From the IMG/VR virus record IMGVR_UViG_2563366854_000003, positions 1 to 28,681 of that record: a DNA stretch of 28,681 nucleotides; one strand, written 5' to 3'. The DNA comes from a virus. Taxonomy: Duplodnaviria; Heunggongvirae; Uroviricota; Caudoviricetes. Position numbers and translations under genes: made by a program. A model generated the notes under the pieces. It made no database searches. It was given only the letters and a program-made list of their open reading frames with translations, and was not told the origin of the DNA. Of the stretch, positions 1,422 to 6,935 are shown in pieces (within the stretch, counting starts at the first letter, position 1; each line of letters begins with the position of its first letter).

Positions 1422-3893
1422 TTAAAAATCAGCCTGATTCGGGATCAGTTTTTGCCAGATAGTTGAAACGTATTTTGCCTGGTAACGGGCATCATCCAGC
1501 GCATTGTGGCGCTCACCTTCGAATGGAATAGCCGCCCTGGCATCGAAGTCCATGGCTTTTCCCAGCTCAACGATTGTGCGTACATCGCGATCGTTGTAGT
1601 AACGCCACGGGCAGGGGATCTCCTGCCGTTCGTATGAACGGCGCAAAATCGTGTTGTCGAAGTTGGCTCCATTTCCCCAGACCTGAACAAAAAATTCACC
1701 GGAGTTTTCGTCGATAAATTCCCGCAATTGTAACAGTGCATCATCTAACGGGATTTCATCGGTCATAATGGCAGATTGCGCTTCGCGTGATTGCTTAAGC
1801 CACCATTTAATGGTGTCCCGATCAATGACTCCGCCAGCAGTTTCCAGATCGATAGTCTTACTAAATTCCGGTCCCATATCTCCGGTTTGCGGATCGAAAA
1901 ATATTGCACCTATTGAGATAATCGGGGCATCGGGATTTTTTCCCATGGTTTCAAGGTCGATCATCAGATGAATCCCCGCTCTGCTGGTGGATGTGAGATT
2001 ATGATGACCGTTCGCCTTAATTAAGGGATCTGACGCCTCGCCAGTTTTACTATCGCTGGCATGATGCTGATTGCCGCCAGTGTTCTCCTTGTGCTGATGC
2101 GCAGTGCCTTCCATTTCCTCCGGATCATTTTCCTGAACTTCAGGCTGATTCTCTCCATCGAATATTTCCTGGTATGTTGCGTCACCCATCACCGCACCAC
2201 AATCAGGGCAGTTGCCGCCACCGCTATGACCGCAGGCGGTGCAGATCTTTTCCGGTTCCTGTTGCACTACTGGTTCAGGTTGTTTCGTTTCTGGCTCGTT
2301 TTGTTGCGTATTTGGGCTGTTTTGTTCCGCTTTCTGGTCGTTCTGTTCCGTTTCTTGCTGGTTCTGGTTCACAGAATCGCGGGTCTGGATCCCCTTAACC
2401 CATTTCGGATCATTCGGGTCGCTAATCCCTTCAACAAATTCACCACGTGATACTGCAAGCAGTTCATCGGCGTCAGGCTGGCTGATATTGGCTGCCTGCA
2501 TAATTTTGTTTACTTCGTCAGCGGTAACTTTTACTGACCCTGGTTGTGCGGTCGTGTCAGATGCACCAGTATTTTGTTGTGAACCTGAGTATGTACCGTT
2601 TTTGCGGGCGAAATATTCTTCTTTCGTGATTTCAGTAGCCCCAGCAGACAGCGCCTTATCCAGACCAGAAAGTTTGTTTGCGCGACCGTATTTTTCGCCA
2701 TCCTTGTCGGTGAAGAGGAAGTAGAACGGCCCCTCACGTTCTACAGATGGTTCGACTTCCACTTTGCATTCGGTTTTTTCGTTGTCTGGAATTGCCGTTT
2801 CCACTGCATCAGTTTCTGGTACTGGCGACGAGAGAGTATCAGTTGCGCTCTGATTTGTTCCTTCATCTTCAAACACGCCCTTTGTATTCAGGTATTCAGT
2901 AATGTATTTGTTCAGTGCCACAGGGTCTTTGTGAATGTCGATCGGACGTTCACGGACAAGGCCAAAAATAGTCTGGCGGTCGTAGCGAAGGGCATCAGGC
3001 TGTTTGCGCATTGATGCCGAGATACGCTTCCAGTCTTCGCGGTCGTTGTCGATAACTTCATTTTTTGCCCAGCGATGGATGCTGCCGTCAATGTTTCCGG
3101 CATCCACATCACCAGGCCAGAGAGCGTAGGCCAGTTCGTCATCCAGTGTTTTCCATGTCTGCTTGTATTCGCGATGAATGGCAGCAATGACCGGGTTGAT
3201 TTTTCCTGTTGAATTTTCAGTGTGCTGTTGATTGGCTCTGGCGCGGGCGAGATCAACAACAGACGTGTATTTTCCGGCTTCCTTGCGTTCACCTTCGCGA
3301 CGTTTTTTCCAGATGCGCATCTCTGCCTGAATTTCGGGCCATTTGGCACCAGGCTTACATTTATGCTTAACCCACCCGATGGCATGCAGCTTAAGCTCCG
3401 GATACATAGCGTTAACTTCTGGCATTTTCATCAACGCTTCAACGATATGGCCGTCGAATGTTGCCATGTCTTCCTGCAACAATTCCTGTGCGCTAATCAC
3501 CATATCAACAGTGATTTTTTCACATGTGTGGAACTTAACCATGACAGCGTTCTGTACTTCAGGGGCTAGGTTGTCAAAAGTGACGTTCATCGGATCGGAT
3601 TCAGTCTCGACCGGGACAAAGGAAGCAGACGCCTCATCCCAGCGGTTTTCCTGCATATATTCAGCATCCCAGGAATCGAGGGCAGGGCGGGGTATACCGG
3701 GTTTATCCTCGCAAACAAGAAATTTATAAGCGCAGTCCTGAGCAGCCGGATAATGTTCCAGGAATTGCCAGTGAAATTTTGCGCGGGCGCGACGTTCATC
3801 ACCGGCTTCAATGGCAGTGGCTACAGCGACGGCACCTTCTTCCTTTATTGCCTGTTCGTCCGGAATGGCGGCGCAAATAAAGACTTTACTCAT
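1422..3893 (-). CDS. Large prophage exonuclease with C-terminal DEDDh (DnaQ-like) 3'-5' exonuclease domain; intact counterpart of the disrupted ydfE-type gene of Qin
   Basis: 823-aa ORF; C-terminal domain carries Exo I 'IDLETMG', Exo II-like 'WGNGANFD' and Exo III 'HNALDDARYQAKY' motifs; central Cys-rich 'CTACGHSGGGNCPDCGAV' zinc-ribbon-like motif; internal Q/E/N/P-rich low-complexity tract. Sits downstream of dicB-ydfD as in Qin. Confidence 0.8.
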   Translation of the reverse strand: MSKVFICAAIPDEQAIKEEGAVAVATAIEAGDERRARAKFHWQFLEHYPAAQDCAYKFLVCEDKPGIPRPALDSWDAEYMQENRWDEASASFVPVETESDPMNVTFDNLAPEVQNAVMVKFHTCEKITVDMVISAQELLQEDMATFDGHIVEALMKMPEVNAMYPELKLHAIGWVKHKCKPGAKWPEIQAEMRIWKKRREGERKEAGKYTSVVDLARARANQQHTENSTGKINPVIAAIHREYKQTWKTLDDELAYALWPGDVDAGNIDGSIHRWAKNEVIDNDREDWKRISASMRKQPDALRYDRQTIFGLVRERPIDIHKDPVALNKYITEYLNTKGVFEDEGTNQSATDTLSSPVPETDAVETAIPDNEKTECKVEVEPSVEREGPFYFLFTDKDGEKYGRANKLSGLDKALSAGATEITKEEYFARKNGTYSGSQQNTGASDTTAQPGSVKVTADEVNKIMQAANISQPDADELLAVSRGEFVEGISDPNDPKWVKGIQTRDSVNQNQQETEQNDQKAEQNSPNTQQNEPETKQPEPVVQQEPEKICTACGHSGGGNCPDCGAVMGDATYQEIFDGENQPEVQENDPEEMEGTAHQHKENTGGNQHHASDSKTGEASDPLIKANGHHNLTSTSRAGIHLMIDLETMGKNPDAPIISIGAIFFDPQTGDMGPEFSKTIDLETAGGVIDRDTIKWWLKQSREAQSAIMTDEIPLDDALLQLREFIDENSGEFFVQVWGNGANFDNTILRRSYERQEIPCPWRYYNDRDVRTIVELGKAMDFDARAAIPFEGERHNALDDARYQAKYVSTIWQKLIPNQADF

Positions 3894-3985: not shown

Positions 3986-4177
3986 TTAAAGACCTGCCGG
4001 GATTTCGTTATTATCCTGGTGAATAACTTTATCGACCGGGTAACAGTTACCGGGAATTTTCTGTTCGGTTGCTGCAGTCACACACTCCTGCATTGTCCTG
4101 TGAACACTGACTGCAATATCAACTGGCTCTCCGGAAACAAGAAAAACTGTCAGAACAAGTGCAAATGCTGTATTCAT
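3986..4177 (-). CDS. ydfD: YdfD-like small lysis/membrane protein (63 aa)
   Basis: Internal Met of the 81-aa track ORF gives 'MNTAFALVLTVFLVSGEPVDIAV...IPAGL' (63 aa), matching the Qin YdfD sequence as I recall it, with an N-terminal TM helix; start overlaps the dicB stop (ATGA). Confidence 0.8.
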   Translation of the reverse strand: MNTAFALVLTVFLVSGEPVDIAVSVHRTMQECVTAATEQKIPGNCYPVDKVIHQDNNEIPAGL

Positions 4178-4362
4178 TGCCAGCATCCTTTTTGTATCGG
4201 ACGTAAACGGGCCAACATTGAAAGAATGCATATTTTATTTAATAGCTCCCGTTCGTGTTTTCTCTTGTTAATGGCATCTTCAGTAAATACAGGGTTACTG
4301 ATAGTGACACCAATTTCAAAACAACCTTCAGACGTATTAACGTTTGGTAATAACGTTTCCAT
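4174..4362 (-). CDS. dicB: Cell division inhibitor DicB (62 aa)
   Basis: Internal Met of the 97-aa track ORF gives 'METLLPNVNTSEGCFEIGVTISNPVFTEDAINKRKHERELLNKICILSMLARLRPIQKGCWQ', recognisably DicB (MinC-activating division inhibitor); lies immediately downstream of dicF. Confidence 0.85.
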   Translation of the reverse strand: METLLPNVNTSEGCFEIGVTISNPVFTEDAINKRKHERELLNKICILSMLARLRPIQKGCWQ

Positions 4363-4531
4363 TATCGCGTCCTCAACAATGAATTTTGTGATGCGGTGCC
4401 TGGTGCTTCCAGGTGACGTTAACCAGTTAACAATTAACGCCGGATACAGAGAATCCACCCATAACACTGTTTTTGGTTTTAACTGTTCCGCGTGCGCTCA
4501 GCCGCATTCACCGCATCACAAAATTCACTTT

Positions 4532-4589
4532 AAAAAGGGCGGCAGAGCAGTCACGGAGTAAAACTGATACCGCCAAACGTCACCAGAAA
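4532..4589 (-). ncRNA. dicF: DicF small regulatory RNA (ftsZ-targeting sRNA) with its terminator hairpin
   Basis: Reverse complement of 4532-4589 reads TTTCTGGTGACGTTTGGCGGTATCAGTTTTACTCCGTGACTGCTCTGCCGCCCTTTTT, the DicF sequence ending in a GC-rich hairpin (GGCGGCAGAGCAGTCACGGAG...CTGCCGCC) plus T-run; position between ydfC and dicB matches the Qin operon. Confidence 0.85.
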
Positions 4590-4929
4590 ATTGATAACAG
4601 AGGGCGTTGCAGCGGGGTTGTCACTTAAGCGTATGGTCAACCTGACAACCCGGTGTCCTCAACGGGGAAGGAATAACCCCGCCATACTCACCGCCGCGCC
4701 ATTTCGCGGATTGCCACAACCGGAAGCGCACGGTCGACGAAAATTTAACGACAGGCTATCTATGAACCAGCTACCTCGCCGTGCGCTTTCGCGTTATGGT
4801 CTGACCTTTCAGGGAAATATCCTTTCAGTAAACTGTCTGTGCCGGATGCTCACCCGTGTCCGGCGCACGCACTCCACCTCATCCGTGGAGAACTCCTTAA
4901 TTACCAACCTTAGCTTCGTTGGTTAGCTA

Positions 4930-5148
4930 TTAACGCGGGTATGTAATCATTCTGGCAATGCTTAATGCCGCTGCTTTTTCCAGATTAGTGATATCCTGCT
5001 CCAGAGCGGACAGATTTTCAGCCTGCTTAGCCCTGGCTTCATTGGCCCATTTCAGATCCTGCGCTGCATTAATTTTCTGGTGCATCCACTCATAAAGTTC
5101 ATCATCGGTATAGTCTGGCGCGATGATGACGGGTTCTCGTTTCTGCAT
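4930..5148 (-). CDS. ydfC: YdfC-like small protein (72 aa) of the dicB operon
   Basis: 72-aa ORF at the position and size expected for ydfC between ydfB and dicF; the sequence itself is not independently recognised. Confidence 0.5.
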   Translation of the reverse strand: MQKREPVIIAPDYTDDELYEWMHQKINAAQDLKWANEARAKQAENLSALEQDITNLEKAAALSIARMITYPR

Positions 5149-5177
5149 ACTGATTCCTCGCGGTGCTGTTTCGCTTA

Positions 5178-5306
5178 TCAGCCGTTAGATTTTGCCGAAC
5201 TGGAAAGCGCCTGTTTAAACTCACTGAAGCTGAGAGCTTCTTCGCCTTCGGCAAGGCCTTCGAAGTATTCTTCGTAAGCCTTTTCCATGATTGTGTCGAA
5301 ATCCAT
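5178..5306 (-). CDS. ydfB: YdfB-like small acidic protein (42 aa)
   Basis: Manual translation from ATG (minus) at 5306: 'MDFDTIMEKAYEEYFEGLAEGEEALSFSEFKQALSSSAKSNG' (42 aa), stop at 5178-5180; packed tightly between ydfA and ydfC; below the 60-aa ORF-track threshold. Confidence 0.45.
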   Translation of the reverse strand: MDFDTIMEKAYEEYFEGLAEGEEALSFSEFKQALSSSAKSNG

Positions 5307-5307
5307 A

Positions 5308-5463
5308 TCACTCACCTGAGTTTCTTTCCAGCCAGCGACGGGCACCATTTTCGGTTTTAAACGTTTTGCTTTTGGTATACGTCATTGCGGTGAACGTGCC
5401 GTCCTGGTTGGGGAACACGCCACATACCAGAGATTCGCTGTTGCCAAGATCGATAGTATCCAT
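5308..5463 (-). CDS. ydfA: YdfA-like small protein (51 aa), first gene of the dicB operon
   Basis: Internal Met of the 78-aa track ORF gives 'MDTIDLGNSESLVCGVFPNQDGTFTAMTYTKSKTFKTENGARRWLERNSGE' (51 aa), the size of Qin YdfA; GAGG-type RBS upstream. Confidence 0.55.
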   Translation of the reverse strand: MDTIDLGNSESLVCGVFPNQDGTFTAMTYTKSKTFKTENGARRWLERNSGE

Positions 5464-5759
5464 GCTGACCTCATTTCCCCTTAACGCCGGGGTAGCGGAA
5501 CAAAAACCTGCTGCATAGTTATTAAAGTTGAACCCTGCCGTCATGTTCTTACGCCTCGGGCTGGCTACTTAACCCCTGACCACTGCCTGGTAACTCGAAG
5601 TATTGCCCTGCATTCTGTGGGGCGGGGTGGTGGCAGGTATATAATGTACTTTGTGTTCATTGTTGTAAAGTACTTTTAGTACATTTTGTGTGTAAAAAAA
5701 TGAGATGGGATAAAGTGAAGCACAAACCCGGAGGAAGGCGCTACCGGATTTATGCTGGT

Positions 5760-6179
5760 TTAAGAGGCTTTTTGTTTTTTCTTTCGTGCTAACTCTTCGT
5801 AAATTGCATTGTACTTCTGTTTTTTCTCTTCAAGAGTTTTTAAAAGTTCATCTGTCTCACTGTCAGGGAGCTCGTCCAGAAGGTCAATGATGATTTTTTG
5901 TCTTGGATTTAACTCCTGATAGAAACGTACCTGTCCACTTTCTTCTGTATCCTCTCCCAAAAGATAGGTTGGTGTTGTTCCTATTAGTGTTGCTAATTCC
6001 CTTAATTTCTCCCGGCGAGGAATTGTTTCGCCATTAAACCATTTGCTAACCGCTTTTGGTGTTAATTTCATTCGACGGGCAATTTCTGCCTGCCTTCCAT
6101 GTTGTTCATAACCAGCGTTTTCACAGGCTAGCGCAAGCCTACTGGCGAACTCTTTACGCGCTTTATCTTCATGAACCAT
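5760..6179 (-). CDS. XRE-family HTH repressor (DicA/cI functional analogue, no peptidase domain)
   Basis: 139 aa; HTH 'RQAEIARRMKLTPKAVSKWFNGETIPRREKLRELATLIG'; divergent from a Cro-like gene and upstream of the ydfA-dicB operon on the same strand, mirroring dicA in Qin. Sequence differs from K-12 DicA as I recall it. Confidence 0.8.
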   Translation of the reverse strand: MVHEDKARKEFASRLALACENAGYEQHGRQAEIARRMKLTPKAVSKWFNGETIPRREKLRELATLIGTTPTYLLGEDTEESGQVRFYQELNPRQKIIIDLLDELPDSETDELLKTLEEKKQKYNAIYEELARKKKQKAS

Positions 6180-6258
6180 AAGTTCAATGATATTCGCTCT
6201 TGAATGTACTGTCAGTTCTGTTATAGCATGTACTCAAAGTTCACATTGTGAGGGTGAT
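6180..6258. promoter_or_regulatory. Divergent promoter/operator region between repressor and cro-like gene
   Basis: 79-bp intergenic region holding two direct copies of ATGTACTnnnAGTTC (aATGTACTgtcAGTTC and cATGTACTcaaAGTTC). Confidence 0.4.
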
Positions 6259-6513
6259 ATGAACCAGAAAACACTTGAAGATGTAATCAAAACTGTTCGC
6301 GTTGCTGTTGTGGCCGACGTTTGTGGTGTCAGCCAAAGAGCAATCTATAAATGGATGGATAACGGAAAATTGCCTCGCACAGAATATACCGGCGAAACAA
6401 ATTACGCTGAAAAAATCGCTCTTGCATCAAACGGATTATTTTCTGCCGATGCAATTTTAACTATTGGCAGGAATAAAACTACTACGAAAAAGCTGATGGG
6501 AGTTGATTCATGA
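6259..6513 (+). CDS. Cro-like / YdaS-like small HTH regulator
   Basis: Internal ATG at 6259 preceded by GAGGG RBS; 'MNQKTLEDVIKTV...VSQRAIYKWMDNGKLPR' HTH; divergent from the repressor; ATGA overlap with the next gene. Confidence 0.65.
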   Translation: MNQKTLEDVIKTVRVAVVADVCGVSQRAIYKWMDNGKLPRTEYTGETNYAEKIALASNGLFSADAILTIGRNKTTTKKLMGVDS

Positions 6514-6935
6514 AAATCAAGCATGAACACATCCGCATGGCGATGAATGCCTGGGCGCGTCCTGATGGCGAAAAAGTTCCAGCAGCTGGAATAACCCAGG
6601 CTTATTTTGAGTTGGGTATGACGTTCCCAGAACTGTATGACGACAGCCATCCGGAAGCCCTGGCTCGCAATACCCAGAAAATTTTCCGCTGGGTAGAGAA
6701 AGACACCCCTGATGCTGTTGAAAAAATGCAGGCTCTGTTACCGGCGATCGAAAAGGCGATGCCGCCTTTGCTGGTGGCCCGTATGCGCAGCCACAGTTCT
6801 GAATATTATCGTGAGATCGTCGAACGGAGGGATCGGCTGGTGAAGGATGTCGATGATTTTGTTGCGTCAGCGGTTGTTTTGTATGACCAGATGAATCGCG
6901 GCGGCCCGGCAGGGAATGCTGTGGTGATGCACTAA
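6510..6935 (+). CDS. YdaT-like / CII-like regulatory protein (putative)
   Basis: 141 aa 'MKIKHEHIRMAMNAWARPDGEK...' immediately after the cro-like gene with a 4-nt overlap; assignment by position and N-terminal resemblance to Rac YdaT from memory. Confidence 0.45.
   Translation: MKIKHEHIRMAMNAWARPDGEKVPAAGITQAYFELGMTFPELYDDSHPEALARNTQKIFRWVEKDTPDAVEKMQALLPAIEKAMPPLLVARMRSHSSEYYREIVERRDRLVKDVDDFVASAVVLYDQMNRGGPAGNAVVMH

Follow-up and report, generated by a model that had tools for sequence, protein, structure and literature searches.

Organization of the locus

The window, by which we mean the whole stretch of 28,681 bases analysed here, belongs to an E. coli prophage and carries a divergently transcribed pair of regulatory genes: a repressor gene of 139 aa on the minus strand (5760-6179; Pfam HTH_3, E 1.8e-9) and a cro-like gene of 84 aa on the plus strand (6259-6513), whose product shares 60% identity with HK022 Cro in a 73-aa alignment (E 1e-33) and gives a weak HTH_17 match. 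Beyond the 3' end of the repressor gene, the ydfA-dicB operon runs leftward from ~5634. The start of this early-left operon (3986-5633, minus strand), apparently driven from a pL-like promoter, consists of a leader of ~170 nt followed by ydfA (5308-5463), ydfB (5178-5306), ydfC (4930-5148), the DicF sRNA (4537-4588; Rfam DicF, 76.7 bits), dicB (4174-4362) and ydfD (3986-4177), and the operon continues into an exonuclease VIII-like gene, xis and int. Its Pfam matches are DUF1391, DicB and DUF1482, and across 4800-5501 the ydfABC-dicF-dicB operon is 97% identical to that of Qin. The pL leader (5460-5640, minus strand) gave no Rfam match at the gathering threshold and essentially no covariation in RNAalifold, for which the available sequences are too alike. 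Directly 3' of the repressor stop codon lies a stable hairpin (5719-5756, minus strand; minimum free energy -19.2 kcal/mol, z-score -4.3 against shuffles) that has no T-run and is possibly a 3' end or an insulator separating the repressor gene from pL.

On the right, a ydaT-family gene, a CII analogue (6510-6935, plus strand; Pfam YdaT_toxin, E 2.6e-9), follows cro. It is common to other immunity types, and from 6499 onward the window is 99.7% identical to an O145-type prophage. At the start of this gene, on the right edge of the immunity module, lies a YdaT-box, TTGATTCATGAAAATCAA (6503-6520), the single match in the window to TTGATT-N6-AATCAA, the motif on which the YdaT proteins of Rac and CP-933P, themselves CII analogues, have been footprinted (PMC11879457).

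Predicted operators and promoters

A sequence-only reading of this DNA had proposed that one operator-like motif recurs at both regulatory regions, upstream of the ydfA-dicB operon and between repressor and cro. This was borne out: ATGTACTNNNWGTTC has three exact matches in the 28,681-base window (5644-5658, 6204-6218 and 6228-6242), as opposed to none in 100 dinucleotide-preserving shuffles, and the other elements quoted for the left region are found as well (AATGTAC at 5643-5649, GTACATT at 5679-5685, AAAGTAC/GTACTTT at 5667-5676). A search with the dyad core GTACTNNNAGTWC also recovers a perfect palindrome at 5670-5682; it yields 12 strand-wise matches (8 distinct positions) where 1.2 are expected, and all four zero-mismatch sites fall within the two regulatory regions. 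The unit is a 15-bp inverted repeat, TGWAC-N5-GTWCA, present at five sites that overlap or abut promoter hexamers or the repressor start. The two copies between repressor and cro that had been described as direct are indeed both present (6204 and 6228), but as 15-bp inverted repeats and not merely as direct ones, and a fifth site, the best-scoring of all, had been overlooked.

The sites belong to the operator family of phages HK022 and HK75. We scanned 28,667 window positions with a matrix trained solely on HK022/HK75 operators, taking the HK022 operator coordinates from GenBank records and from the summary in PMC8053113, and all five sites ranked among the six best. The fifth-best score was 13.13, at which shuffled sequence averages 0.3 sites; one of the five, OL1 (12.96), lies just under it. 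Two matches scoring similarly to OL1 occur inside the exonuclease gene (1684-1698 and 2263-2277), and therefore the sequence score alone does not define an operator. We take these two as probable chance matches, since they lie in coding DNA and part of the exonuclease VIII-like gene also adjoins the O157-type immunity locus.

In the left region, the predicted operator OL1, TGTACTTTGTGTTCA (5645-5659), lies between the -10 and -35 hexamers of the pL-like promoter and is homologous to HK022 oL1, TGTACTTAAAGTTCA; its rounded score of 13.0 is the sixth of the 28,667 positions. OL2, AGTACTTTTAGTACA (5669-5683), also predicted, is a perfect dyad that abuts and overlaps the pL -35, is homologous to HK022 oL2, AGTACCAATAGTACA, and has the second-highest score in the window (18.1). 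The half-sites of both are unchanging in 10 loci, as is the TGTAAA hexamer that forms the pL -35. The promoter itself (5641-5669, minus strand) was found by a consensus scan, with TTTACA (5664-5669) and CATTAT (5641-5646) separated by a 17-nt spacer, and, anchored on OL1, its hexamers occupy the positions annotated for the pL -35 and -10 in the HK022 record X16093.1. A TATAAT-like hexamer had been noted here from the sequence; TATAAT does occur at 5640-5645, but on the plus strand, whereas the operon is on the minus strand, for which the scan gives TTTACA-17-CATTAT at 5669..5641. HK022 also has OL3 and OFR, for which the window holds no counterpart scoring at least 10 at the equivalent positions in the matrix scan; 5717-5731 contains one weak half-site only.

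In the right region, the predicted operator OR3, TGAACCATAAGTTCA (6172-6186), is the site that had been missed. It spans the repressor start codon (6177-6179), is identical to HK022 oR3, which likewise lies over the cI start, and has the highest score in the window (20.4). OR2, TGTACTGTCAGTTCT (6205-6219), 33 bp from OR3, falls between the -35 and -10 of a pR-like promoter and is homologous to HK022 oR2, TGTACTATCAGTTCC, where the 33-bp offset is the same. The third predicted site, OR1, TGTACTCAAAGTTCA (6229-6243), lies just 3' of the pR -10 at the HK022 oR1 position, with the third-highest score (17.6), and its distance of 24 bp from OR2 repeats the spacing between OL1 and OL2. The pR-like promoter of cro (6200-6227, plus strand; -35 TTGAAT at 6200-6205, -10 TATAGC at 6222-6227, with a preceding TGT that makes an extended -10) was placed by position-for-position homology with the pR hexamers annotated in X16093.1, and its start is predicted near 6234; the consensus scan missed it because its -10 ends in C.

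On the minus strand, the same scan returns promoters that coincide exactly with the OL pair and with OR3/OR2. The latter is a pRM-like promoter (6187-6215; CTGACA-17-TATCAT, 10/12 matches to consensus), which we infer to be the maintenance promoter. Its predicted start (6179-6180) is at or beside the repressor ATG, with no Shine-Dalgarno sequence 5' of the ATG, and the repressor message is probably leaderless. As the -35 of this promoter lies inside OR2, activation of the lambda style by an OR2-bound repressor does not fit.

Conservation and limits of the immunity module

The homology to HK022 extends beyond the operators. Positions 5640-5700 are 80% identical to its pL/oL region, and 6019-6354 match the N-terminus of cI, oR and cro at 72% identity. 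The operators of the window pair one by one with those annotated in X16093.1 and HM173637.1, at spacings of 24, 33 and 24 bp. The module thus shares with HK022 and HK75 the 15-bp operator family, the order OL1-24-OL2 and OR3-33-OR2-24-OR1 with OR3 on the repressor start, the pL and pR hexamers at the same positions, and homologous Cro proteins and repressor N-terminal domains. Left of 5640/pL no homology to HK022 is left and its putL/nun region is absent, and after cro there is a ydaT-family gene where HK022 has cII.

To examine the sites in related prophages, as the sequence-only reading had proposed, we compared 12 loci with repressors 40-100% identical to that of the window, drawn from E. 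coli, Salmonella, Citrobacter, Klebsiella, Providencia, HK022 and HK75. Position, spacing and half-sites are kept in all 12, while the surrounding DNA diverges: 25 out of 30 half-site columns are invariant in the OR operators of the 12-locus comparison and 20 out of 20 in OL, as opposed to 8 out of 15 (OR) and 1 out of 10 (OL) for the central bases, 5 out of 27 between the OR operators and 5 out of 50 in the OL flanks. Across 56 operators, G2, A4, C5, G11, T12 and C14 are constant.

Which protein maintained these sites has to be considered. It could be argued that they are mainly Cro sites and that Cro, not the 139-aa protein, kept them conserved, since the close similarity to HK022 Cro noted above is accompanied by co-variation of Cro with the module, and in lambdoid phages such as lambda, 434 and P22 the operators are common to Cro and CI. 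We regard this as unlikely. Shared use is the norm, and use by Cro does not exclude use by the repressor. Moreover, the recognition-helix region of the repressor is conserved across the 12 loci at least as well as that of Cro, and silencing in the lysogen, for which the OL sites are important, depends on the repressor. Less probable still, and in our view very improbable, is that promoter elements and coding sequence account for the conservation, the repeats being by-products of similar promoters. Each site does overlap or abut a promoter hexamer or start codon, and the TGTAAA -35 is invariant too, but one and the same dyad recurs at five places whose promoter registers differ (OR3 lies on a start codon, OR1 3' of a -10), its two half-sites stay constant while the 5 bp between them are free to vary, and the counterparts in HK022 are annotated as operators, the repressor of that phage being reported to bind OL and OR. 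A repeat arisen by chance in AT-rich intergenic DNA, for which the two exonuclease-gene matches of comparable score could be cited, is refuted with near certainty by the shuffles, by the way the sites cluster, by their constant spacings of 24 and 33 bp and by their conservation across genera.

Homology to other immunity types (Rac, O157 and O145) ends at 5630-5644 and resumes at 6499-6505, and hence both promoter-operator regions are exchanged along with repressor and cro. This agrees with the proposal, made from the sequence, of an immunity-specificity swap. Rac has in common with the window the pL leader as far as 5630 (87% identity), the ydaT start (6504-6533, 97%) and the ydaT-family assignment, but has another repressor, another gene at the Cro position (ydaS) and other operators, with its own operator motif on both sides of racR. 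In strain EE72d the module seen here adjoins a Rac-type left arm. When 11-mers were compared between the OL and OR sides of six immunity types, the expected diagonal appeared for Rac, O145, Qin and the window; a contiguous 11-mer comparison cannot see gapped dyads (it gives 0 for HK022 with itself), and we use this as supporting evidence only. The prophage type is present in 1047 out of 5426 complete E. coli genomes, about one in five, and occurs in Salmonella with more diverged repressors. A literature search found no mention of phage Tritos.

Taken on the sequence evidence, the segment from 5631/5645 to ~6500 is very probably a lambdoid immunity module with operators of the HK022 type and a 139-aa repressor recognising TGWAC-N5-GTWCA. 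Textbooks define a lambdoid immunity region by the operators that OL and OR share, and the arrangement is the ordinary lambdoid OL/OR layout, with no new system or regulatory principle. As in lambda, the repressor and cro genes are divergent, multiple dyad operators, 24 bp centre to centre, lie over PL and PR/PRM, the repressor message is probably leaderless, and the module is exchanged as a unit among lambdoid genomes. It differs from lambda in its unrelated operator sequence, in having two OL sites instead of three, in the lack of an N/nut system downstream of pL, and in the positions of OR3 on the start codon and of the pRM-like -35 inside OR2, which make lambda-style activation doubtful.

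A composite repressor and its predicted circuit

In Qin, dicBp is repressed by DicA, and both regions are described as containing operator-like sequences (PMC10448788). The DicA operator Oc is TTGTTAGTCATAACTAACAA (PMC3441716); it lies in the dicA-dicC region of Qin, with related sequences 5' of ydfA. The window resembles Qin DicA/DicC in its gene order, with a cro-like gene, a short non-cleavable repressor and then the promoter of ydfABC-dicF-dicB. The suggestion that a single repressor acts both at its own and the cro promoters and at the ydfA-dicB promoter, as DicA does in Qin, is supported by the sequence comparisons (promoter overlap, 12-locus conservation and breakpoints). The operator had been held to differ from that of Qin, and in this it is indeed unlike the DicA operator, neither regulatory region having an 11-mer in common with its equivalent in Qin (window-Qin cells 0), but it is not new, being of the HK022 family. 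The pL leader also differs from that of Qin and is longer.

The repressor had likewise been called a different protein from DicA, which holds for one half of it. Its N-terminal domain (~residues 1-76) is a helix-turn-helix domain like that of HK022 CI, with 47% identity over 99 aa (E 6e-32), whereas its C-terminal part (~residues 90-139) is homologous to that of DicA, with 29% identity over a 112-aa alignment that reaches the C-terminus; with the NCBIfam DicA model NF007257 the protein scores 56.8 bits, under the 101-bit cutoff. An alignment with DicA and the O145-type short repressor shows the DicA-type C-terminal helical segment (LL.LF..LPESE ... F..LFEELL), and the predicted structure comprises a five-helix domain, a linker (77-89, pLDDT below 50) and two helices (92-103 and 106-138). 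Among solved structures, only generic helix-turn-helix domains matched (P22 C2, 434, LexA-like HTH), and none matched the tail. HK022 CI has 235 aa with an S24/LexA-like domain; no S24 peptidase match was found in the 139-aa protein, whose alignment shows a 50-aa helical tail in its place. Longer relatives that carry PF00717 exist, and the recognition-helix region, TPKAVSKWFNGE (in HK022 TPKAISKWFNGE), is kept in all HK022-type repressors compared, short or long. The O145-type repressor and DicA have the same C-terminal tail with other N-terminal domains and other operators. In these comparisons, operator type follows the N-terminal domain of the repressor.

The tail also places the protein beside the short Gifsy-type repressors GfoR and GtgR, which are inactivated by antirepressors and to whose group DicA and RacR are also said to belong (PMC3121763). 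The likeness is one of size and architecture: a length of ~140 aa, a helix-turn-helix with a short helical tail and the lack of an autocleavage motif (PMC3121763). The cognate antirepressor or LexA-controlled gene of the Gifsy systems was not found in this window, nor was a LexA box (CTGT-N8-ACAG) anywhere in its 28.7 kb. DicA is released by the antirepressor Rem and not by RecA (PMC10448788); no Rem homologue was found here, the ORF at the rem position (11110-11382) being rejected for its lack of similarity to Qin Rem. There was no antirepressor candidate in the window, which may not span the whole prophage, and antirepressors are diverse.

We infer the binding, repression, cooperativity, autoregulation and induction route of the 139-aa repressor as follows. 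Dimers would bind the 15-bp dyad through the HK022-CI-like helix-turn-helix domain. OL1 and OL2 bracket the pL -10 and -35, and their occupancy would silence the early-left operon, that is ydfABC, DicF, DicB and YdfD and then exonuclease VIII, xis and int. OR2 and OR1 cover pR, so that cro and the ydaT/replication genes would be shut off, while OR3, on the start of the repressor's own message, would limit repressor synthesis. Cro presumably competes for the same sites, which would give a bistable switch, and YdaT, at its box, presumably drives establishment transcription of the repressor. Because a DicA-type helical tail replaces the LexA-like S24 domain, release would be expected, as with DicA, through an antirepressor or flipping of the switch instead of self-cleavage stimulated by RecA. 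HK022 CI is reported to bind cooperatively to neighbouring operators within OL and OR and to loop between them (PMC8053113), but the C-terminal domain responsible is replaced here, and these properties cannot be carried over to the 139-aa repressor.

It is tempting to see in this protein a natural chimera, in which a DNA-binding domain of HK022 specificity sits on a short DicA/Gifsy-type tail while the operators of HK022 and their spacing are preserved. We put this forward tentatively, as a reading with a real but limited chance of being right; if the protein binds as predicted, its prophage family would provide HK022-type immunity without release by RecA-stimulated cleavage. Were this true, adjacent-site cooperativity and OL-OR looping would either come from an entirely different oligomerisation domain or be dispensable. 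The five sites and three promoters provide a testable operator map for an uncharacterised repressor predicted to silence DicB and DicF, which inhibit cell division, together with the rest of the early-left operon. Moreover, the repressors compared here form a natural domain-swap series, with one N-terminal domain joined to two C-terminal domains and one C-terminal domain joined to three N-terminal domains, which could show how much of cooperativity, looping and induction route resides in the C-terminal part.

Operators and promoters around the repressor gene

The window covers the left arm of a lambdoid E. coli prophage together with its early region. The minus strand encodes, from left to right, integrase (1-1131), xis, an exonuclease VIII-like protein (1422-3893), ydfD, dicB (4174-4362), the DicF sRNA (4537-4588; Rfam, 76.7 bits), ydfC and ydfB, ydfA (5308-5463) and a repressor of 139 aa with a helix-turn-helix (5760-6179); the plus strand then carries a cro-like gene of 84 aa (6259-6513), a ydaT-family gene (6510-6935) and a replication gene. 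The operator motif concerns the two non-coding stretches flanking the repressor gene. The sequence-only reading had noticed a motif repeated in both of these regulatory regions, and the repetition is real: ATGTACTNNNWGTTC has exactly three matches in the 28,681 bases, at 5644, 6204 and 6228, and none across 100 dinucleotide-preserving shuffles. When up to one mismatch is allowed, the dyad core GTACTNNNAGTWC has 12 strand-wise matches (8 distinct positions) against 1.2 expected, and all four zero-mismatch sites, including a perfect palindrome at 5670-5682, lie inside the two regions. A repeat finder pairs sites 24 bp apart, start to start, at left and right alike.

The idea that the operators are novel in sequence must be abandoned, as their family, that of HK022, has long been known. 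When the phage collection was searched for distant DNA matches, the HK022 immunity region came up at ~71% identity (repressor N-terminus, intergenic region and cro), and the HK022 (X16093.1) and HK75 records annotate oL1 (TGTACTTAAAGTTCA), oL2 (AGTACCAATAGTACA), oR3 and oR1 (both TGAACCATAAGTTCA) and oR2 (TGTACTATCAGTTCC). Five window sites align with these one to one, namely the left operators OL1 (TGTACTTTGTGTTCA, 5645-5659) and OL2 (AGTACTTTTAGTACA, 5669-5683) and the right operators OR3 (TGAACCATAAGTTCA, 6172-6186), OR2 (TGTACTGTCAGTTCT, 6205-6219) and OR1 (TGTACTCAAAGTTCA, 6229-6243). OR3, which the earlier reading had missed, is identical to HK022 oR3 and spans the repressor start codon, as oR3 does in HK022; the start-to-start spacings (OL1-OL2 24 bp, OR3-OR2 33 bp, OR2-OR1 24 bp) are likewise those of HK022. 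A weight matrix trained on the HK022 and HK75 operators alone, and hence independent of the window, ranks the five sites 1st, 2nd, 3rd, 4th and 6th among 28,667 positions; the score of the 5th-best position is reached by a mean of 0.3 sites in shuffled sequence. Two positions in the exonuclease VIII-like gene, 1684-1698 (TGAACAAAAAATTCA) and 2263-2277 (TGCACTACTGGTTCA), match the score of OL1 and are probably chance matches.

HK022 promoter hexamers, transferred by anchoring on the operators, place pL on the minus strand (-35 TTTACA, 5664-5669; -10 CATTAT, 5641-5646; 17-nt spacer). The TATAAT reported near ydfA is present at 5640-5645, but on the plus strand, which is the wrong one; an independent promoter scan instead gives the same TTTACA-17-CATTAT on the minus strand (5669..5641). 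The plus-strand pR (-35 TTGAAT, 6200-6205; -10 TATAGC, 6222-6227, preceded by TGT) comes from the HK022 transfer and was not recovered by the scan because its -10 has a terminal C. A further promoter predicted by the scan is CTGACA-17-TATCAT (6215..6187), on the minus strand and on the repressor side, whose start lies at or beside the repressor ATG (6179); since no Shine-Dalgarno sequence precedes this ATG, the repressor message is probably leaderless, as is the lambda cI message. The -35 of this promoter falls within OR2, so lambda-type activation by OR2-bound repressor should not be assumed.

The motif is also conserved in related prophages, and thereby withstands the conservation check that the sequence-only reading had proposed. 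We compared 12 loci: the window, phage Tritos, E. coli EE72d (97% DNA identity), a metagenomic E. coli locus (89%-identical repressor), two Salmonella loci (short repressors 65% and 62% identical), HK022, HK75, one Citrobacter phage, two Klebsiella phages and one Providencia phage. The OR3-33-OR2-24-OR1 arrangement occurs in all 12, and OL1-24-OL2 on a TTTACA -35 in 10 of the 10 loci whose left side was found in the retrieved DNA. Invariant half-site columns number 25/30 (OR) and 20/20 (OL), compared with 8/15 and 1/10 for the central five bases, 5/27 between the OR operators and 5/50 in the OL flanks. Across 56 operators (29 distinct sequences), G2, A4, C5, G11, T12 and C14 of the 15-bp dyad (TGWAC-N5-GTWCA) do not vary, and only A or T occurs at position 3. 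In Salmonella the OL pair is kept ~900 bp from the repressor, and in one locus (L015) it lies directly upstream of a DUF1391 (ydfA-like) gene. The intervening HigB-like toxin gene and HTH gene (L014, 3553-4220; L015, 3588-4255) are likely a toxin-antitoxin pair; lambda rexAB occupies the same position.

A chimeric short repressor

Over residues 1-99 the repressor shares 47% identity with HK022 CI (E 6e-32), and the recognition-helix stretch TPKAVSKWFNGE is kept in every aligned repressor of the 12-locus set, short and long. HK022 homology at the DNA level is limited to 5640-5700 and 6019-6354 (BLAST), leaving the repressor C-terminal part uncovered. From about residue 88 the protein resembles DicA (alignment 29% identical over 112 aa), and this tail is near-identical to that of the O145-type short repressor. 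Against the curated DicA model the repressor scores 56.8 bits, under the 101-bit cutoff. Judged by these alignments, the repressor is a chimera of an HK022-CI-like N-terminal part and a DicA-like tail, and operator type tracks the N-terminal domain, not the tail. The mix is thus a naturally occurring domain swap, and acts as a control on whether the repressor reads these predicted sites.

The AlphaFold model (mean pLDDT 80) has a five-helix domain, a linker (77-89, pLDDT <50) and two further helices (92-103 and 106-138); matches among solved structures are confined to the helix-turn-helix part. No S24 peptidase domain is found in the 139 aa, although one (PF00717) occurs in longer proteins related to the N-terminal domain. 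Cooperative binding to adjacent operators and looping between OL and OR are reported for HK022 CI (PMC8053113); both are properties of a domain missing from this repressor, so they may not carry over to it. DicA does not undergo SOS cleavage and is relieved through the Rem antirepressor and DicC-dependent switch flipping (PMC10448788), and Gifsy-type short repressors are inactivated by antirepressors (PMC3121763). By analogy, we expect the 139-aa repressor to be released in this manner, not by SOS cleavage. No LexA box and no Rem homologue were found in the window, the ORF at the Qin rem position (11110-11382) being unrelated to Rem.

Exchange among immunity types

Three prophages of other immunity types were compared by BLAST: Rac (racR/ydaS), an O157 prophage whose repressor is of the LexA family and an O145 prophage with a different repressor of 139 aa. 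Common sequence ends at 5630-5644 and resumes at 6499-6505; the interval has none, except that the O145 type shares the coding part of the repressor C-terminus (5761-5876; 1686-1801 in its locus L003; 75% DNA identity). The shared segment marks a recombination joint within the repressor gene. The O145-type repressor has an unrelated N-terminal domain, another operator, TACCCAT(A/G)GGTA, and a near-identical tail protein. In EE72d the module, at 96-97% identity, adjoins a Rac-type left arm (ydaF, sieB). By this mosaic structure, the immunity module is the unit of exchange. Judged by eye, each other type carries a repeat of its own to either side of its repressor: TAGGC...GCCTA in Rac, TACCCAT(A/G)GGTA in O145, AATCTAAAA/TTAGATT in O157 and TGTTAG...CTAAC in Qin; a crude 11-mer matrix across types gave the expected diagonal for most.

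Exactly at the right-hand boundary, and covering the ydaT-family start codon, lies a perfect match to the YdaT-box TTGATT-N6-AATCAA (TTGATTCATGAAAATCAA, 6503-6520), the sole one in the window. This box has been footprinted for YdaT in Rac and CP-933P, and Rac YdaT is a CII analogue whose binding there activates a leftward PRE-like establishment promoter for the repressor (PMC11879457).

Probable control of the early-left operon

The region is a canonical lambdoid immunity module. Repressor dimers at OL1/OL2 would block pL and silence the prophage's entire early-left transcription unit, including the host-toxic products DicF and DicB, while dimers at OR2/OR1 would block pR; OR3, where the repressor message begins, would restrict repressor synthesis, and Cro probably acts at the same operators. 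The sequence evidence supports the earlier proposal that one repressor governs its own and cro promoters and that of ydfA-dicB, as DicA does in Qin, and the control logic over dicB would be that published for DicA and dicBp. In the literature searched we found no description of an HK022-type DNA-binding domain and operators combined with a DicA-type tail and placed before the dicBF operon, nor of the frequency of the region among E. coli genomes; at least 80% of it is present in 1047 of 5426 complete genomes.

Several further features were observed. About 85 nt of the ~170-nt pL leader (5463-5633, minus strand) are near-invariant in the Rac, O157, O145 and window types, more conserved than the adjacent ydfA coding sequence, and missing from Qin, where homology ends at 5501; RNAalifold found no covariation and Rfam no family in this leader. 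The phage Tritos annotation lengthens ydfA into it as a 78-aa ORF (5308-5544, minus strand). Because the equivalent ATG in Rac opens only an 18-codon frame that stops before the gene, this extension is probably non-coding and the true start probably 5463. A stable hairpin without a T-run (5719-5756, minus strand; -19.2 kcal/mol, z-score -4.3) directly follows the repressor stop codon, with similar ones, by eye, at the 89%-identical E. coli locus and the Salmonella loci. An IS element (8527-9735; mutator-family transposase, 402 aa) lies within the replication region, so this may be a defective prophage. Beyond the IS element comes a hok/sok module (10617-10942; Rfam sok, 120.5 bits), and the late-regulatory region carries two tRNA genes and the STnc100 sRNA (15312-15468 and 15735-15925; Rfam gathering threshold).
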